NCBI GenBank assembly: GCA_963822845.1
Contig: CAWGIY010000009.1
Location: forward strand, 543,631 to 607,630
Length of the DNA stretch: 64,000 nucleotides
DNA from: an uncultured Chloroflexia bacterium
Lineage (GTDB): Bacteria; Chloroflexota; Limnocylindria; QHBO01
Reading direction: 5' to 3'
The position numbers and the translations under genes are program-made. The notes beneath the pieces were generated by a model. The model was not told where the DNA came from, ran no database searches, and worked only from the letters and a program-made list of their open reading frames with translations. Positions 21,056 to 63,403 of this stretch are shown piece by piece. Every line of letters starts with the position of its first letter. Position 1 is the stretch's first letter.

Positions 21056-21142
21056 GCCGGGGTGGCGGAACCGGTAGACGCGTCGGTCTCAAACACCGAT
21101 GGGCGCAAGCCCGTGTGGGTTCGAGTCCCACCCCCGGCACCA
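21056..21142 (+). tRNA. tRNA-Leu (anticodon CAA) with a long variable arm and encoded CCA.
   Basis: 7-bp acceptor stem GCCGGGG/CCCCGGC, anticodon stem TCGGT/ACCGA with loop CTCAAAC, T-arm GTGGG-TTCGAGT-CCCAC. Confidence 0.85.
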
Positions 21143-56578: not shown

Positions 56579-57256
56579 ATGAGCGAGCAGGGTTGGCGGG
56601 GGTTCCTCGCCGCGGAGGGCGTCGACGACTGGGTAGTGCTGCACGGCGGGGCGACGGCGGTGTTCCGCGTCGGATCGGTCCAGGAGGCGCTGCGGCTGGC
56701 CGAGGCCGTCGCAGGCATCCCGGGCTTCCAAGGCACCGGGGCGCTGCTGACGATCGCGGATGACCGCGTCACCGTGCGGCTGACCCGCGACTTGTGGCAG
56801 CTCGAGCCACGGCACGTGGAGCTGGCGCGCGCCATCTCGGCGGTGGTGCGGGAACACGGCGCGGTCGCCGACCGCGCATCGGTCCAAGAGGTGCAGGTCG
56901 CGATCTCCGGGAAGCCCGACGCGATCGACGTTGGCTTCTGGCGGGCCGCGCTCGGGTACGCGCCGATGGCCGACGACAACGGCGTCGATCCGCTCGGCCA
57001 CGGGTCGACGGTATGGATGCAGCAGCTCGACGAGGCAAGGCCGCTGCGCCACGCGATGCACGTCGACGTGTCAGTCGCGCGCGAGCAGGTCGAGGCGCGG
57101 GTCGCGGCGGCACTCGCGGCGGGCGGCCGCATCGTCGACGACGGATGGGAGCATAAGACCCTCTCCGATCGCGCCGGCAATCGTGTCTGCATCTGCGCGT
57201 GGCCCGACGGCTTTACGTGGCGGGATGGGATGGCTGGGCGTGCCTCCGACACCTAG
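56579..57256 (+). CDS. VOC (glyoxalase/bleomycin-resistance fold) protein with an N-terminal pterin-4a-carbinolamine-dehydratase-like domain.
   Basis: Two-domain architecture inferred from sequence patterns. Confidence 0.55.
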   Translation: MSEQGWRGFLAAEGVDDWVVLHGGATAVFRVGSVQEALRLAEAVAGIPGFQGTGALLTIADDRVTVRLTRDLWQLEPRHVELARAISAVVREHGAVADRASVQEVQVAISGKPDAIDVGFWRAALGYAPMADDNGVDPLGHGSTVWMQQLDEARPLRHAMHVDVSVAREQVEARVAAALAAGGRIVDDGWEHKTLSDRAGNRVCICAWPDGFTWRDGMAGRASDT

Positions 57257-57281
57257 GGGCAGGTCCGCTGCTGTCACCAGT

Positions 57282-57299
57282 TATATCAGTAGTGATATA
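57282..57299. promoter_or_regulatory. AT-rich dyad TATATCA-GTAG-TGATATA in the promoter region upstream of the cobalamin riboswitch.
   Basis: Perfect 7-bp inverted repeat. Shares the TATATC/GATATA arms with the site at 53031-53050. Confidence 0.35.
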
Positions 57300-57477
57300 T
57301 CCCGCGACACCAACGAAGGCACGGGCCGCCGCTCGTACGACAACTCGATCCAGGAGTGGGGCAACAAGGAGCCTGTTCGAGACGCTTCCGCAGCGCGTCG
57401 ACCTGGAGCAGACCGATCTTCTGCGAGGCCGGCGGCGTCGCCCACGTCTCGTACCGCGTCATTCGATAGCGCGCGGC

Positions 57478-57672
57478 TGGTAGAGTCGGGCCAACAACAC
57501 GACGCGACCCGGTGCAGGGGAAGTCGGTCAAAGGCCGACGCTGACCCGCAGCCGTAGGCCGCCGGGACGAAGGTCCCGCGGCGAGCCGGAATGCCTGGCC
57601 GGGAAGCTTCGCTCCACCCCTCGTCGCGGTTCGCGAGGCGGAGCCGGCATCGATCCCGCGCCTCGCGCAACC
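57478..57672 (+). ncRNA. Cobalamin (B12) riboswitch with a downstream hairpin CGCGAGGCG-N16-CGCCTCGCG (expression platform).
   Basis: Conserved core CAGGGGAAGUCGGUCAAAGGCCGACGCUGACCCGCAGCCGUAGG matches the E. coli btuB leader element AGGGAAUCCAGUGCGAAUCUGGAGCUGACGCGCAGCGGUAAGG. A GGGAAG-containing B12-box-like segment follows. Confidence 0.75.
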
Positions 57673-57722
57673 ATCGATCCTGGCGGCCCGCGGACCCGAC
57701 GGACCGAAAGGAAGACGGCTCG

Positions 57723-58922
57723 ATGTCGGACCTCTCCATCCAGCCCGCATCGCGGATTGTGCGGGCCTGGACCCTCGTCCTCGTGGTCCTCGCGTTCATG
57801 CTCACCGCCGTGGCCGCCCCATCGGTGCGCGCCGGCGGATCCACGACCACCGATCCAGGCGACGCCGCCGGCGGCTGGATCGCCCAGCAGGTCGAGACCG
57901 ATGCGACCCTCGGTGTCGGTTCGCTGGCGGATGCCATCTTCGCCTTCGCCGCGACCGGTGTCGGCCAGGCCGCCGCCGCCGATGCTCTTGCCCGCATCGA
58001 GGCCGGTCTCGAGGCGTTCGTCTCGGACGGGACGAACCTGCGCCCCGGGGCGCTGGGCAAGGCCATCCTTGCGGTCAGCGTCCAGGGTGGCAACGTGAAC
58101 AGCTTCGGCGGGCGCGACCTCGAGGCCGACCTCCGCGGCCTGCTGGTCACGTCGGGGCCGGACACCGGCCGCTTCGGGTCCGCCACCGTCTTCGACCAGA
58201 CGATCGCGGTGCTCGCCCTGGCCCGGACCAGCGGTGGCGTGCCGGCCAGTGCCGGAGACTGGTTGGCCGCCGCGCAATGCCCGAGCGGCGAGTACCAGTG
58301 GGACGGGTCCTGCCCGGCCGGCCCTGGCCTCGAGGATCCGGACACCACCGCGCTGGCGCTCCAGGCGCTGCTGGCTGCCGGCGAGACGGCCGCCGCGGCC
58401 GGATCGACGACCTGGCTCCTGGACCTCCAGGCCAGTGACGGTTCGCTCGCCTCCTTCGGCACCCCGAACACGAACAGCACCGGCGTCGCGGGCCAGGCGC
58501 TGCGTGCCGCCGGCGAGACCGCCGCCGCCGACGCGGCCGCGGCCTTCGTCGTCTCCCTCCAGCTCGGCTGCGACGCCGATCCCGGCACGATCGGCGCGAT
58601 CGCCTGGTCGGTTGCCGATCCGGGCTTCCTCATCTTCTCGACGCCGCAGGCCGTCCTCGCGCTCGGCGCGCCGCCGCTCGACACGCTGAGCGCGGCCGGC
58701 GCATCAACGGACGCGCCGGCGCTCGAGTGCGCGGTCACCGGACCGCCCGCGACGGCAACACCGTCCCCCACGCCGACGGCCTCGCCCGGCGCCGGGGGCG
58801 CGCTGCCCGACACCGCGTCCGGTGCGGGTGACGCGGCGGGACTGCTCGCGACGCTTGCGGGCGGGATGCTCGTCGCTGGCGGTGTCGTGGCCATCCGCCG
58901 GAAGGTCGGAGCCCGGTCGTGA
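57723..58922 (+). CDS. Cell-surface prenyltransferase/squalene-oxidase-repeat (alpha/alpha-toroid) protein with signal peptide and a C-terminal LPDTAS sorting-signal-like motif, TM and RRK tail.
   Basis: Repeated QxxDGS[WL]-type terpenoid-cyclase repeats. AAGGAAG RBS. First gene after the riboswitch. Confidence 0.75.
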   Translation: MSDLSIQPASRIVRAWTLVLVVLAFMLTAVAAPSVRAGGSTTTDPGDAAGGWIAQQVETDATLGVGSLADAIFAFAATGVGQAAAADALARIEAGLEAFVSDGTNLRPGALGKAILAVSVQGGNVNSFGGRDLEADLRGLLVTSGPDTGRFGSATVFDQTIAVLALARTSGGVPASAGDWLAAAQCPSGEYQWDGSCPAGPGLEDPDTTALALQALLAAGETAAAAGSTTWLLDLQASDGSLASFGTPNTNSTGVAGQALRAAGETAAADAAAAFVVSLQLGCDADPGTIGAIAWSVADPGFLIFSTPQAVLALGAPPLDTLSAAGASTDAPALECAVTGPPATATPSPTPTASPGAGGALPDTASGAGDAAGLLATLAGGMLVAGGVVAIRRKVGARS

Positions 58923-59828
58923 CCGATGGCGCCGGCCGAGCCCTGCTCGGCCGGCGAGCCCTCCCCTTCGTCGCGGCCCTCCTGCTCGCGGTCGCGGCGC
59001 TCGGTGCGCCTGCCGAGGCACGGGCATGGACCGCGGGGGCGTGCCCGACGACCACGAGCGGCGTGACGGTCGTCGTCGACTTCGGCGCCCTCGGCGCCGG
59101 GACGGTCGTTCGTTGCGCACCAGGGGACCCGGCCACCGGGTTCGCGGCCCTCGCGGGTGCCGGCTTCTCGATCGAGCAGGTCAGCAACGTGCCGGGCTTC
59201 CTGTGCCGCATCGACGGCCGGCCCGGCGCGAGCCAGGAGACGTGCGTCAACACGCCGCCGGCGTCCGCGTACTGGGTGTACTGGCACGCGCCGCGCGGCG
59301 GAAGCTGGACCTACAGCTCGTCGGGGGCCGCCACCCGCAACCCTTCACCCGGCACCGTCGAGGGCTGGTCGTTCTCCGGCCCCGGCGGCGTGACGCCACC
59401 CGGCGTGCCGCCTCCTCCCCCGCCGGCGGCTCCGAAGCCGACGCCCACGCCACGCCCGCCGGCGCCCGCGCCCACCGCGCCGGACGCACCGGCGCCCACG
59501 AGCCGGCCCGCGGGCGCAACGGCCGCCCCCACGCCGCGGGCGGTCACCCCGGAGCCGACGGCGACTGGGCTCACCGAAGGCGTCAGCGCGCCCGTCGGCC
59601 ACGCCCCTGAGTCGCCCGACGGCCTCAGCCTCCGCGAGCGCGGCGACGTCGGAGCCATCTGCGTCGCCCTCCCCGTCGGATGCCGTGACCGCTGCGGCGA
59701 GTGCCGCGCCGGCTCCTCCGGCCGTCCCGCTCGGCACGGCCGCGGGCGTGGCGATCGCGGTGGCGGTCGGGAGCGCGGCCGCGATCATCGTGCGGCGCCG
59801 TGCGGCGGGCGCGGATGGAGGGCCGTGA
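58919..59828 (+). CDS. DUF4430-domain surface protein with Pro-rich linker and C-terminal TM anchor; one +1 frameshift near 59600.
   Basis: GTGA start overlap with the upstream gene. C-terminal ...GVAIAVAVGSAAAIIVRRRAAG anchor becomes readable only in the shifted frame. Confidence 0.7.
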
Positions 59829-60963
59829 GTTGAGCACGCACGACCTCCGACCGGCCCGCACGCTGCACCCCGGTGCCTGGTGGCTGTGGGCGCTCGGCCT
59901 CGCGATCGTCGCGAGCCACACGACGAACCCGCTGCTGCTCGGCCTGATCATCGGCGTCGCCGCGCTCGTGGTCGCCGCGCGACGCGAGGACGCGCCGTGG
60001 GCGCGCGCGTTCCGCATGTACCTCTACCTCGGCGCAGCGATCGTGGTCATCCGGGTCGGCTTCCGCATCCTGTTCGGGGGCGAGTTCGGCACGAACGTCC
60101 TCTTCTCACTGCCCGAGGCCGCACTGCCCGAGTGGGCGGCCGGCATCCGCATCGGCGGCGAGGTCACGGCCGAGAGCGTCCTCGCGGCCTTCGTCGACGG
60201 CCTGCGGCTGGCGACGATCGTCATCTGCTTCGGCGCCGCGAACAGCCTTGCCAACCCCGGGCGCCTGCTGCGCCTGGCGCCGAATGCCCTGTACGAGGCC
60301 GGCGCCGCGGTCACCGTGGCGATGAGCCTCGCCCCGCAGCTGGCGGAGAGCGTGATCCGCGTCGGCCGGGCCCGCCGCGTCCGCGGCTCGGTCGCGGGAG
60401 GTCGCCGATCGGTGCCCGGCATCCTCCTGCCGGTGCTCCAGGACGCGCTCGACCGATCCCTCTCGCTCGCGGCCTCGATGGATGCCCGGGGCTACGGCCG
60501 ATCCGGCGCCGAGCCGGCCGCCCGTCGCCGAGTGACCGCGGCGCTCCTCATCGTCGGCCTGTTCGGCGTCGCGATCGGCCTCTATGGCGTGCTCGACGCG
60601 ACGGCCGCGATCCCGCTGGCGGCGCCGATCATGGCCGGTGGCGCGGCGTTGCTGGTCGGCGGCATGGTGGCCGCTGGGCGCCGCGTCCAACGCACGCGCT
60701 ACCGCCCCGATCCGTGGGGCCTGTCCGAGTGGCTGGTCACGGCGTGCGGGGCGCTCGCGGTCACCTCGGTCATGCTCGGTGCGACCCTCGATCCGGCCTC
60801 GCTGCACATGTCCCTCGCGCCGATCTCGTGGCCGGGGCTTGCGGTCGTCCCGACCATCGGTGTGCTCGTCGCGGCGACGCCGGCCTGGATCGTGCCGCCG
60901 CCGATTTCGAGGGCGGCCAGACGGACCTCGGCCGCCGGTGCGACCTCGGGAGCTCGACCGTGA
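59815..60963 (+). CDS. Energy-coupling-factor transporter transmembrane component (EcfT/CbiQ family).
   Basis: Polytopic membrane protein with CbiQ-like conserved regions. ATG overlaps the upstream gene end. Confidence 0.8.
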   Translation: MEGRELSTHDLRPARTLHPGAWWLWALGLAIVASHTTNPLLLGLIIGVAALVVAARREDAPWARAFRMYLYLGAAIVVIRVGFRILFGGEFGTNVLFSLPEAALPEWAAGIRIGGEVTAESVLAAFVDGLRLATIVICFGAANSLANPGRLLRLAPNALYEAGAAVTVAMSLAPQLAESVIRVGRARRVRGSVAGGRRSVPGILLPVLQDALDRSLSLAASMDARGYGRSGAEPAARRRVTAALLIVGLFGVAIGLYGVLDATAAIPLAAPIMAGGAALLVGGMVAAGRRVQRTRYRPDPWGLSEWLVTACGALAVTSVMLGATLDPASLHMSLAPISWPGLAVVPTIGVLVAATPAWIVPPPISRAARRTSAAGATSGARP

Positions 60964-62570
60964 TCCAGTTCCACGGCGTCTCGCTGACCTACCCGGAGGC
61001 ATCGGCTCCGACGTTGCGTGACGTGGAGCTGGCCGTCGAGGAGGGCAGCCTCTGCCTCGTGGCCGGGCGCACTGGCGCCGGCAAGACGACCCTGCTGCGG
61101 CTCGTCAACGGCCTCGTCCCCCACTTCAGCGGCGGCCTCCTCACCGGCCGCGTGACCGTCGGCGGCCGCGACACGCGCGACCATCCGCCGCGCGAGCTGG
61201 CCGACGTCGTCGGGTCGGTCGCGCAGGACCCCCTTCACGGGTTCGTGACCGACAGCGTGGAGGAAGAGCTCGCCTACGGCATGGAGCAGCTCGGCGTCGA
61301 CCCCGCCACGATGCGCCGGCGCGTGGAGGAGACGCTCGACCTCCTGGGAATCGCCGACCTGCGCGACCGATCGCTCCGCAGCCTCTCCGGCGGGCAGCAG
61401 CAGCGCGTCGCGATCGGTTCGGTGCTCGCAGCCGGGCCACGCGTCCTCATCCTCGACGAGCCCACCTCGGCGTTGGACCCGCCCGCCGCGGAGGAGGTCC
61501 TCGCCGCCGTCCTGCGACTCGTCCACGACCTGGGGCTCACGGTCCTGCTCGCCGAGCACCGGATGGAGCGCGCCGTCGGCTACGCCGACCGCATCGTCAC
61601 CGTCCATGGCGACGGCACGGTCACCGACGGACCGCCCGCCGCGGAGCTCGAGCGGCTGGAGCTCGTCCCGCCCGTCGTCGAGCTGGGCCGGATGGCGGGG
61701 TGGTCCCCGCTGCCGCTCACCGTTCGCGACGCCCGCGCGAGCGCCGGGTCGCTGCGGACGAGGCTCGCCGAGGTCGCGCCGGCGGATCGTGCTGCGGAGC
61801 CGACGGACACGATCGCCCTTCGTGCCGAGCGGCTGACGGTGACGTACGGGCCGGTCACCGCCGTGCGCGACGTCACGCTCGAGCTGGCGCGCGGGGCGGT
61901 GGCGGTGCTCATGGGCCGCAACGGAGCGGGCAAGTCGTCGCTGCTGTGGGCGTTGCAGGGATCGGGACCGCGACGCTCGGGCAGCGTCCGGGTCGAGGGC
62001 CTCGATCCAACCGTTGGGGGCGCTGCGACCAAGGGACTGGTCGGCCTCGTCCCGCAGACCGCGGCCGACCTGCTCTACCACGACACGGTCGACGCGGAGT
62101 GTCAGCAGTCCGACCGTGACTGGCAGGTCCGTCCGGGGACGACTCGCGACCTGCTGGCGCGGATCGGCAGAGACGTCGACCCGGCAATCCACCCCCGGGA
62201 CCTGTCCGAGGGCCAGAGGCTGGCGCTCGTCCTCGCGATTCAGCTCGCGGGATCGCCGAAGGTCGTCCTGCTCGATGAGCCGACGCGCGGCCTCGACTAC
62301 CCGGCCAAGGCGTCACTGGTCGATGTCCTTCGCGGCCTTGCCGGCGCCGGCCACGCCATCCTCGTCTCGACCCACGATGTCGAGCTGGCCGCGTCGCTCG
62401 CCGATCGCGTCATCGTGATGGCCGGCGGAGAGATCGTCGCCGACGGCACCGCGGTTGAAGTGCTGGCCGCCTCGCCGGCGTTCGCGCCCCAGGTCGCGAA
62501 GATCCTCGGCCCGCCATGGCTCACCGTCGACGGCGTCCGTCGAGCCCTCGCTCTCGGGGGCGCGGCATGA
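60960..62570 (+). CDS. Fused duplicated ECF transporter ATPase (EcfA-EcfA').
   Basis: Two complete ABC cassettes (GRTGAGKTT/LSGGQQQRV/LILDEPTSALD and GRNGAGKSS/LSEGQRL/VLLDEPTRGLD). GTGA start overlap. Confidence 0.9.
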   Translation: MIQFHGVSLTYPEASAPTLRDVELAVEEGSLCLVAGRTGAGKTTLLRLVNGLVPHFSGGLLTGRVTVGGRDTRDHPPRELADVVGSVAQDPLHGFVTDSVEEELAYGMEQLGVDPATMRRRVEETLDLLGIADLRDRSLRSLSGGQQQRVAIGSVLAAGPRVLILDEPTSALDPPAAEEVLAAVLRLVHDLGLTVLLAEHRMERAVGYADRIVTVHGDGTVTDGPPAAELERLELVPPVVELGRMAGWSPLPLTVRDARASAGSLRTRLAEVAPADRAAEPTDTIALRAERLTVTYGPVTAVRDVTLELARGAVAVLMGRNGAGKSSLLWALQGSGPRRSGSVRVEGLDPTVGGAATKGLVGLVPQTAADLLYHDTVDAECQQSDRDWQVRPGTTRDLLARIGRDVDPAIHPRDLSEGQRLALVLAIQLAGSPKVVLLDEPTRGLDYPAKASLVDVLRGLAGAGHAILVSTHDVELAASLADRVIVMAGGEIVADGTAVEVLAASPAFAPQVAKILGPPWLTVDGVRRALALGGAA

Positions 62571-63403
62571 CCGCATTGCCGGCGCGCGCGACGGCCGTGC
62601 CCGTCGCCGCGCGACCGTGGCTCGTCCTGGCCATCGGTTCGGCCGTGGGGGTCATGGCATTCTGCTGGCCCTTGATCGTGTCGCCCGGCCCGGCTGGCGC
62701 GCCGCGGATCGACAGCCCGCTGCTGTTCGTCGCGATACTGCCGATCATCGTCGCGACCCTCGTCATCGAGCTGTCGGCCGGTCGCATGGACGCCAAGGCC
62801 ATCGCCATGCTCGGCGTCCTCGCAGCCCTGGGTGCGGCGCTGCGCCCGCTCGGTGCCGGCACCGCCGGGGTCGAGACGGTGTTCGTCCTGCTCGTCCTCG
62901 GCGGGCGCGCGTTCGGACCGGGGTTCGGCTTCGTGCTGGGCCCGGTCACGCTCTTCGCATCGTCGCTGCTCACCGGTGGCGTCGGGCCGTGGCTGCCGTT
63001 CCAGATGCTCGCCGCCGGCTGGGTCGGCCTCGGCGCCGGCCTCCTCCCGCGGGCACGGGGCAAGCGCGAGGGCCTCCTGCTCGCGGCGTACGGCGCCGCC
63101 GCCGCCTTCGGCTATGGCCTCGCCATGAACCTGTGGTTCTGGCCGTTCGCCGCCGGTCTCGATACGGCGCTCTCGCTCGTCCCGGGTGATCCGATCCTCG
63201 ACAACCTCGGCCGGTTCCTGCTGTTCACCCTCGCGACGTCAATGGGCTGGGACCTCGGCCGCGCGATCACCACGATCGTGCTGCTGGCCGTCCTCGGCCC
63301 GACGGTCCTGGGAGCCCTTCGCCGTGCCGGCCGGCGCGCGGCGTTCGGCGCGTCAGCGCAGTTCGCCACGCGGGACGCCGCGGAAGGGGTCAGCCCTCCG
63401 TAG
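62567..63403 (+). CDS. ECF transporter substrate-specific (S) component.
   Basis: Small six-TM protein. ATGA overlap with the ATPase gene. Confidence 0.7.
   Translation: MTALPARATAVPVAARPWLVLAIGSAVGVMAFCWPLIVSPGPAGAPRIDSPLLFVAILPIIVATLVIELSAGRMDAKAIAMLGVLAALGAALRPLGAGTAGVETVFVLLVLGGRAFGPGFGFVLGPVTLFASSLLTGGVGPWLPFQMLAAGWVGLGAGLLPRARGKREGLLLAAYGAAAAFGYGLAMNLWFWPFAAGLDTALSLVPGDPILDNLGRFLLFTLATSMGWDLGRAITTIVLLAVLGPTVLGALRRAGRRAAFGASAQFATRDAAEGVSPP

Follow-up and report, generated by a model that had tools for sequence, protein, structure and literature searches.

Sequence comparison points to a short class II cobalamin riboswitch upstream of a putative corrinoid-uptake operon in an uncultured Chloroflexia bacterium

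In the genome of an uncultured Chloroflexia bacterium, a short RNA element lies directly upstream of five genes that appear to encode an uptake system. We analyzed this element within a 64,000-nucleotide stretch of DNA (contig CAWGIY010000009.1, positions 543,631 to 607,630; hereafter the window, to whose numbering all coordinates refer). Judging from the sequence, we consider it probable that nucleotides 57493-57644 form a cobalamin-sensing riboswitch of the short class II type, which would act as a translational OFF switch on the five-gene operon. The original prediction, which placed a cobalamin riboswitch at 57478-57672, is borne out: the element scores 37.0 bits against the RF00174 (Cobalamin) model, above the gathering score of 31.5, and it recurs upstream of orthologous genes. 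Its features lie at about the positions first reported, but the functional unit is larger, with the -10 element at 57478 at one end and the start-codon region at ca. 57729 at the other. The riboswitch is genuine but ordinary, adding one member to one of the most widespread riboswitch families.

The RF00174 match emerged from an Rfam scan of the whole window and spans 57493-57617 on the + strand, with an E-value of 9.1e-6 over both strands of the 64 kilobases and of 7.8e-8 for the local region. RF00174 belongs to clan CL00101, and membership requires a score at or above the curated gathering score; the covariance search that had been proposed as a check on the prediction, with a lower score to count against it, gave a score above that threshold. 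Only one other family, tRNA (21056-21139), exceeded its gathering score in the window, and a permissive local scan around the element returned the same RF00174 match and nothing else credible. Direct reading places the conserved core, GGUGCAGGGGAAGUCGGUCAAAGGCCGACGCUGACCCGCAGCCGUAGG, at 57511-57558, and in the RF00174 alignment the core GGGAA...GCUGACCCGCA...GUAG and the B12 box align with the general cobalamin consensus.

Related loci provide a broader view of the element. Twenty-eight homologues of the first gene of the operon (gene 1) were aligned, and the alignment was used to retrieve 80 loci from reference genomes, of which L002-L017 are from Chloroflexota and L018 onwards from Actinomycetota. 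The nearest locus, at 99% identity, is from a metagenome-assembled genome of Chloroflexia/Limnocylindria type. At the Rfam threshold, 19 of the 20 nearest loci have RF00174 on the same strand as the gene 1 homologue and directly upstream of it. A custom covariance model, built from a 20-locus alignment of the aptamer and the hairpin that follows it, produced 130 hits in the 81 sources searched, just one of which (142 bits) lies within the window; by RF00174 as well, this is the sole cobalamin element there. With the custom model, 73 of the 80 loci, from both phyla, have the element on the + strand and no more than 700 nucleotides (nt) upstream of the protein match, and two of the seven loci without it end at contig boundaries. 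These data bear on the idea that the RF00174 match is a product of chance or decay with no regulatory function. A score only modestly above threshold and an apparent frameshift in the second gene of the operon would suit that explanation; however, the element is kept upstream of orthologues in two phyla, with compensatory changes, and the RNA is near-identical in L008 and L081 despite 11-14% protein divergence. We therefore regard a chance or decayed match as extremely improbable.

The structure of the aptamer can be assigned helix by helix on the + strand. P1 pairs CCCGGU (57508-13) with GCCGGG (57598-603) and is connected through J1/3 (GCA, 57514-16) to P3, where GGG (57517-19) faces CCU (57594-96). 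P4 (57523-27/57535-39) is followed by P5 (57542-43/57549-50) with its loop L5, ACCCG, in which ACC occupies 57544-46. P6 pairs CCG (57552-54) with CGG (57587-89) and is capped by a simple 10-base-pair (bp) hairpin, GCCGC-C-GGGAC GAAG GUCCC GCGGC (57558-57582). The B12 box, comprising J6/3 and the 3' strand of P3 (57583-57600), reads GAGCCGGAAUGCCUGGCC, aligns to gAGCCAGGAGACCuGCC of the RF00174 model, and is almost invariant among relatives in the 20-locus alignment. The GGGAAG that had been taken to mark an additional element is present at 57602-57607, but it does not stand apart: its beginning coincides with the end of the 3' strand of P1 (57598-57603), and 4 nt extend past P1. The hairpin that comes next (57611-57644), named P13 by convention, pairs GCUCC (57611-15) with GGAGC (57640-44) and CCUCG (57619-23) with CGAGG (57634-38). 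It folds in all 20 leaders examined, and its inner stem shows compensatory changes. Its loop, L13, contains GGU (57628-30), which is complementary to the ACC of L5, giving the kissing loop that is common to all cobalamin riboswitch classes (PMC7367189).

Compensatory changes speak for the predicted helices and for the L5-L13 kissing loop. Across 129 distinct sequences, in an alignment that was fitted to the model structure and so favours it, 94.1% of the structure cells form standard pairs; the figure is 80.3% for shuffles and 32-52% for slid controls. Both sides change in 20 of the 30 pairs. A smaller alignment made without the covariance model gives the same picture. P3, P4, P5, and P6 are 97-100% paired across the 129 sequences, with double changes in P4 and P6, and the first pair of the kissing loop covaries (A-U in 55 sequences, G-C in 19, U-A in 11, and G-U in 7), while the second and third are C-G in ca. 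100 sequences each. Independently, RNAalifold arrives at P4, the two parts of P6, and the inner P13 stem. The same program paired P3 with the invariant CCC of L5, which we disregarded as an artefact of energy-based prediction.

Class I cobalamin riboswitches are defined by a P2 loop-stem-loop between P1 and P3 together with a P7-P11 extension of P6, whereas class II members lack the P2 arm and carry a simple stem-loop alone on P6 (PMC7367189). In the window RNA, 2 nt stand in for 23 positions of the RF00174 model between P1 and P3, and 17 nt for the 62 positions of the P6 extension; this short form, with no P2 and a simple P6 hairpin, is common to all 20 aligned relatives. Because the P2 arm and the long P6 extension are both missing, the window RNA and its relatives are assigned by their sequences to class II and not to class I. 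Within class II, the IIa type has a bulged J1/3 T-loop and prefers methylcobalamin (MeCbl) or hydroxocobalamin (HyCbl), whereas the J1/3 of IIb is short and either mismatched or paired, its P6 hairpin is short, and its preferred ligand is adenosylcobalamin (AdoCbl) (PMC7367189). The J1/3 of the window RNA, 3 nt opposite 1 nt, and its P6 hairpin fit the description of IIb better than that of IIa.

This architecture bears directly on the title of the original prediction, which had called the element a btuB-type, AdoCbl riboswitch. The btuB riboswitch of Escherichia coli belongs to class I. Like the window RNA, it has the conserved core, the B12 box, and an L5-L13 kissing loop, it controls translation, as is proposed here, and it regulates a B12 uptake gene; it differs in its P2 arm and in the long P7-P11 extension from which its adenosyl pocket is built, neither of which the window RNA has. 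A class I, AdoCbl-specific riboswitch would account for the agreement of the core and B12 box with the general consensus and for the similarities to btuB, and AdoCbl is possible as a ligand because class IIb members bind it too (PMC7367189). Nevertheless, with 2 nt in place of the 23 of P2, a simple 10-bp hairpin in place of P7-P11, and the short form in all 20 close relatives, the architecture already refutes class I, and we consider this alternative very unlikely. The AdoCbl label is likewise unsupported, because class II members range from AdoCbl-selective to MeCbl-selective and selectivity within the class is not reliably predictable from sequence (PMC6158498); the preferred form of B12 is thus not readable from the sequence of the window RNA.

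Two known class II members, env8 (Cbl-IIa, PDB 4FRN/4FRG) and the Enterococcus faecalis eut element (Cbl-IIb), have the same four-way junction of P3-P6, B12 box, and L5-L13 kissing loop as the window RNA, and like it they have no P2 loop-stem-loop and only a simple P6 hairpin. The env8-type IIa RNAs differ in having a 5-nt T-loop bulge at J1/3, where the window RNA has 3 nt (GCA) opposite 1 nt, and the 10-bp P6 hairpin of the window is closer to the IIb description. A further difference lies in the expression platform: in env8 the ribosome-binding site (RBS) is inside P13, whereas in the window the start codon is ca. 80 nt downstream and is seemingly reached via a separate anti-start helix.

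The segments from which such a helix could be built lie on the + strand between P13 and gene 1. An anti-start segment, CCGGCAUCGA (57644-57653), is located directly 3' of P13 and is complementary to the start-codon region, UCGAUGUCGG (57720-57729), which includes the ATG of gene 1 (57723-57725); homologue N-termini align from this codon. Between them lie a second copy of CAUCGAUCC with its flank (57672-57684, direct repeat D3), whose pairings are predicted from folds, an anti-L13 segment, CGCGGACCCGACGG (57689-57702), which is complementary to L13 and the 5' strand of P13 (57621-57635), and a Shine-Dalgarno sequence, AAAGGAAG (57707-57714). Among leaders with a short platform, GAAAGGAA(G/C) and the start codon are conserved at the same spacing.

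Predicted folds of the window leader differ sharply with the state of P13. When P13 is enforced as a mimic of the bound state, 57645-57653 pairs with 57720-57728 and the unpaired probability of the AUG is 0.00. In the unconstrained fold, 57621-35 pairs with 57689-57702 and 57643-54 with 57673-84 to give a long hairpin (57621-57702), and the unpaired probability of the AUG is 0.88 or 0.28, depending on the 3' end used. Taking the window and L008 together, the values are 0.00-0.06 with P13 enforced versus 0.28-0.88 unconstrained. The second CAUCGAUCC copy is predicted to change partners as well, pairing with the anti-start segment in the ligand-free fold and with the Shine-Dalgarno region when P13 is enforced.

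The anti-start/start duplex of the window has a predicted energy of -17.4 kcal/mol versus about -7.4 for shuffles, and those of the short-platform leaders range from -10 to -17 kcal/mol versus -7 to -9 for shuffles. The complementarity is kept in 11 of 12 short-platform leaders despite changes in both partners. Thus, where the window has CCGGCAUCGA 3' of P13 and UCGAUGUCGG at the start, L002 has CCGGGAUCG and CGAU-G-CCCGG, L003 has GACAUCGG and CCGAUGUC, and L005, which has a GUG start, has ACGGUCC and GGACCGU. The anti-L13 pairing was read base by base, by eye: GGUUCGCG/CGCGGACC in the window becomes GGUCUGCG/CGCAGGAC in L083, with seven of eight pairs kept, and in L008 the L13 side alone changes, giving a U-G wobble.

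From these pairings we infer an OFF switch that acts on translation initiation. With a corrinoid bound, the kissing loop would lock P13, leaving the anti-start segment CCGGCAUCGA (57644-57653) free to pair with the start-codon region (57720-57729), while the second CAUCGAUCC copy would cover part of the Shine-Dalgarno sequence, so that gene 1 would not be initiated. The downstream genes, which appear to be translationally coupled through GTGA and ATGA overlaps, would follow the shut-off of gene 1. Without ligand, L13 and the 5' strand of P13 would pair with 57689-57702 and the anti-start segment with 57673-57684, forming one long hairpin (57621-57702) that would leave the AUG exposed. There is precedent for such control: the class I and class IIb switches of Mycobacterium tuberculosis exert translational OFF control through the kissing loop and P13 (PMC11260477). 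The M. tuberculosis ppe2 and metE elements resemble the window RNA, for which translational OFF control is a proposal, in coming from high-GC bacteria, in having an L13 hairpin that pairs with L5, and in the logic of an anti-translation-initiation-region (anti-TIR) and an anti-anti-TIR segment; ppe2 has itself been proposed to be a class IIb variant (PMC11260477).

Several observations weigh against the reading of the element as a class II switch that turns off translation of a corrinoid-uptake operon. The Rfam score is just 5.5 bits over the threshold, as expected of a truncated variant, and ligand binding, the transcription start, and the direction of switching are all inferred. In the folds of L002, L007, L003, and L005, the difference in AUG exposure between bound and free states is absent or reversed; among the 20 leaders folded it is clear for the window and L008 alone, which limits the platform model to the close group of the window. 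In a cross-locus duplex matrix the pairing shows limited specificity, since CGAUG occurs in every start region. By prediction, the P13 state lies 10 kcal/mol above the ligand-free hairpin, so that a switch could work only under kinetic (co-transcriptional) control or if ligand and kissing loop contributed much stabilisation. Some relatives, with a long platform, carry a strong hairpin and a U-rich tail, so the expression platform is not uniform, which leaves room for transcription attenuation. Finally, the homologous system of Lactobacillus sakei has been proposed to take up heme (bioRxiv 10.1101/864751).

The original prediction had also noted a 9-bp-stem hairpin downstream of the core and suggested that it might sequester downstream sequence or act as a terminator. 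The exact repeat is present: CGCGAGGCG (57632-57640) and CGCCTCGCG (57659-57667) are 100% complementary on the + strand, with 18 nt between the arms. It overlaps L13 and the 3' strand of P13, making the two hairpins mutually exclusive, so it could in principle be a switch arm. The proposed role did not stand up. A search of 56800-58000 for an intrinsic terminator (a GC-rich hairpin followed by a U-tract) found none, the sequence after the hairpin being CAACCAUCGAUCC, with no U run. Folding with and without P13 enforced, a check that had been suggested at the outset, predicts occlusion of the AUG in the bound mimic but leaves the 9-bp hairpin outside the minimum-energy fold; enforcing it gives -71.5 versus -80.6 kcal/mol, a cost of ca. 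9 kcal/mol. Neither L083 nor any more distant leader, moreover, has the 3' arm. For these reasons a function of the hairpin is unlikely, and the repeat is probably an incidental alternative pairing.

Control by an early end to transcription, whether at an intrinsic terminator or through Rho, could also use some other leader hairpin as terminator or anti-terminator. Rho-dependent control occurs in some actinobacterial riboswitches, and the long-platform leaders (L004, L006, and L009-L017) have a very stable hairpin and a U-rich tail, for example ...GGGUGGGCGAUUUCCUUGG in L015. The platform of the window, however, has neither the long hairpin of that group nor a terminator-like site in the region searched, and the 9-bp hairpin is a poor candidate for the reasons given above. 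We thus rate termination in the window as unlikely, though not negligible, and favour control of translation. The long-platform leaders are a distinct group in themselves: they have ca. 117-121 nt from P13 to the start, a conserved, very stable hairpin with its U-rich tail (…CUCGCCCACGCGUCGGCCGACGGGUGGGCGAUUUCCUUGG; about 240-300 in L015), and, just before this hairpin, a GACCUCG segment complementary to CGAGGUC of the P13 loop region. Their sequences look like a terminator/anti-terminator platform, unlike that of the window.

The ppe2 switch suggests another arrangement, in which the GGAG in the 3' strand of P13 would serve as the RBS of a short upstream open reading frame (uORF) to which gene 1 would be coupled. 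P13 does end in a conserved GGAGCC; in M. tuberculosis the L13 hairpin of ppe2 masks the RBS of a uORF that is required for downstream expression (PMC11260477); and some long-platform relatives, read by eye, have an AUG or GUG 9-13 nt after GGAG. Yet the window has no AUG, GUG, or UUG between 57645 and the start of gene 1, the candidate uORFs of the relatives differ in frame, length, and stop position, and gene 1 has a strong Shine-Dalgarno sequence of its own (57707-14). The ppe2 element differs from that of the window on the same points, since it requires a translated uORF with an AUGA overlap where the window has no evident uORF, and the genes that the two regulate are different. With no start codon in 57645-57722 and no consistency among relatives, the leader-peptide idea was rejected for the window; we judge it highly improbable, and retain direct occlusion of the gene 1 start as the preferred reading.

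The five genes of the operon, all on the + strand, overlap or abut. Gene 1 (57723-58922, 399 amino acids [aa]) is SCO2321-like and resembles the alpha domain of transcobalamin; it matches NCBIfam SCO2321_fam with an E-value of 4.6e-17, under the family cut-off. In its AlphaFold model (pLDDT 87), an alpha/alpha-barrel domain is flanked by an N-terminal hydrophobic helix, which by its sequence could be a signal peptide or anchor, and by a membrane helix at the C-terminus. Foldseek matches include prenyltransferase beta subunits and terpene cyclases, as well as rat, bovine, and human transcobalamin (E ~5e-4, TM ~0.5), so that the barrel matches transcobalamin about as well as it does prenyltransferases. 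Gene 2 (58919-59833, 304 aa as read) belongs to the SCO2322 family, PF28005, and encodes an N-terminal hydrophobic segment, a Cys-containing, transcobalamin-beta-like domain of ca. 110 aa, and a Pro-rich linker. Its homologues carry PF28005:SCO2322 in precomputed annotations; Pfam scans of genes 1 and 2 gave no hits with a Pfam set that did not include PF28005. The model of the gene 2 domain has a pLDDT of ~90, and its top 13 PDB matches are all beta domains of transcobalamin or intrinsic factor, with weak E-values of 0.04-0.2; the comparison with 5no0 gives a probability of 0.99, a TM of 0.65, and an rmsd of 3.4 Å. A protein in which genes 1 and 2 are fused exists naturally (P0106). The two folds are compatible with a putative pair of the transcobalamin/intrinsic-factor type, in which an alpha6/alpha6 barrel and a (DUF4430-like) beta domain would sandwich the corrinoid. 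A literature search on SCO2321-2325 found nothing relevant.

Genes 3-5 encode, by sequence, an importer of the energy-coupling factor (ECF) type of ATP-binding cassette (ABC) transporters, with S and T components and two ATPase domains together. Gene 3 (59815-60963) is the T component (EcfT/CbiQ-like), with 22.3 bits to Pfam CbiQ, under the cut-off of 25, and an E-value of 7e-4 to the EcfT structures 5d3m/6fnp in the PDB. Gene 4 (60960-62570) begins in a GTGA overlap with the stop of gene 3 and encodes a fused double ATPase (EcfA-A') with two ABC_tran domains (E 9e-48). Gene 5 (62567-63403) is the S component, scoring 34.6 bits to PF12822 (ECF_trnsprt) against a cut-off of 30.7; we place its start at 62567, in an ATGA overlap with the stop of gene 4, and an alternative in-frame ATG lies at 62516. 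A phmmer search of the S component against the PDB gave no meaningful match: it has no detectable sequence similarity to solved S components, including CbrT of the ECF-CbrT system of Lactobacillus delbrueckii (PMC5997447). The context of the riboswitch suggests that the substrate of the transporter is a corrinoid. The lsa1836-1840 locus of L. sakei (bioRxiv 10.1101/864751) has the same composition, with ECF S, A-A', and T components and two separate exported proteins, one similar to the alpha and one to the beta domain of transcobalamin. However, the surface proteins of the window are of the SCO2321/SCO2322 type of Actinomycetota and Chloroflexota, which are membrane-anchored in homologues, unlike those of L. 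sakei; and whereas the L. sakei system was assigned to heme, the window operon stands under a cobalamin riboswitch, which argues for a corrinoid.

Gene 2 appears to be frameshifted in the region 59550-59833. Homologues end in a Pro-rich linker and a membrane anchor (…PLGTxxGxxLxxxxxxxxxRRR); the corresponding anchor of the window, AVPLGTAAGVAIAVAVGSAAAIIVRRRAAGADGGP followed by a stop, lies in the +1 frame and ends at 59828, while the frame as read ends in an Arg/Gly-rich tail. A homologue that is 91% identical (P0122) has the same oddity. An indel from assembly is possible, because L008 and the near-identical L001 carry MFD isolate names.

Upstream of the aptamer, an extended -10-like element, TGGTAGAGT, is located at 57478-57486 on the + strand, with ca. 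7 nt between it and the aptamer. Of 26 orthologous leaders, 24 have a TAnnnT hexamer, in most cases with TGn before it, at a fixed spacing of 35-42 nt from the GGGAAG core downstream; a simple sigma-70 scan of 56800-58000 found no consensus promoter pair. The element would place the transcription start at ca. 57492-57495, and the predicted start (~57493) coincides with the beginning of the Rfam match. A promoter had originally been sought in an AT-rich dyad at 57282-57299. The palindrome is indeed there (TTATATCAGTAGTGATATAT, 57281-57300): it is unique in the window and sits within a longer imperfect inverted repeat (57266-88/57293-315). It lies in a stretch of ca. 175 nt (57257-57440) between a glyoxalase-like gene and the riboswitch promoter, and this stretch is missing in the close relative L008, where the glyoxalase-like gene ends ca. 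60 nt before the riboswitch, as well as in L082, by its gene spacing. The dyad is therefore not a conserved part of the riboswitch unit and does not qualify as its promoter. The window and L008 agree almost completely in the final 60 nt ahead of the aptamer. A metagenome scan for the dyad pattern, TATATCANNNNTGATATA, returned more than 120 unrelated contigs, including gut and marine ones; so short and AT-rich a pattern carries no useful information.

The ca. 175-nt stretch with its AT-rich palindrome is unusual for a genome of ~70% GC and could be the remnant of a small insertion. Between it and the promoter, 57441-57469 translates to HVSYRVIR followed by a stop, which resembles the C-terminus (…LTSEYRVV, then stop) of a 151-aa DUF6812 gene located ahead of the riboswitch in L002, L003, and L085-L088. 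From its sequence, 57441-57469 looks like the fossil 3' end of such a gene, retained beside the promoter. Far upstream in the window, the tRNA gene found in the Rfam scan (21056-21139, + strand, 59 bits) has a long variable arm and the anticodon CAA and is a tRNA-Leu by alignment.

Several of the related loci contain more than one riboswitch. In many actinomycete loci, the opposite strand carries a second element of this type at a distance of 100-300 nt, as in L031 (6446-6600, -, and 6731-6889, +), with similar divergent pairs in L024, L026, L032-L034, L040, L041, L065, L068, L069, and L078; one intergenic region thus holds two divergent B12-controlled leaders. Loci from Dactylosporangium and Micromonospora have a further full-length riboswitch on the same strand, a few hundred nt beyond where the gene 1 homologue ends (all +: 8605-8759 in L023, 8542-8694 in L029, 8659-8812 in L044, and 8638-8792 in L071). 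The position of these copies suggests a second B12 checkpoint inside or after the operon.

The riboswitch also has consequences for annotation. The B12 box contains an ATG (57591) in frame with gene 1, and from it a 443-aa frame runs into that gene; the homologue P0006 (L084, 1501-2811) was called at 436 aa, with a start that falls after the aptamer core but ahead of the true one. Gene finding can thus stretch gene 1 across part of its own leader, and it has made at least one homologue in the database too long; the riboswitch corrects the annotated start of gene 1. As an object of study, the compact RNA of ca. 150 nt (aptamer and P13), with its clearly covarying kissing loop, is suited to tests of ligand selectivity in class II.

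The riboswitch RNA itself teaches little that is new; its likely effect would be to shut off corrinoid uptake once B12 is sufficient. The split surface pair, with its likeness to transcobalamin, is of most interest. By its position, the riboswitch assigns a probable role in corrinoid uptake to an operon of 'hypothetical' SCO2321/SCO2322-type and ECF genes that is conserved across two phyla. Somewhat more speculatively, and with slightly less than even confidence, we suggest that these genes represent a widespread corrinoid-capture system, in which a membrane-anchored, split transcobalamin-like pair hands B12 to a dedicated ECF transporter under the control of a IIb-like switch that reaches a distant start codon via a relay helix. 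In such a system, found in Chloroflexota and Actinomycetota, the SCO2321-type protein would be the alpha barrel and the SCO2322-type protein the beta domain, sometimes fused, and the S component would be unrelated in sequence to CbrT. If the surface pair does bind B12 as a split transcobalamin, it would bear on the competition for corrinoids among soil Chloroflexota and actinomycetes, and it would be a bacterial counterpart, and possibly an evolutionary relative, of the transcobalamin and intrinsic-factor carriers of animals.

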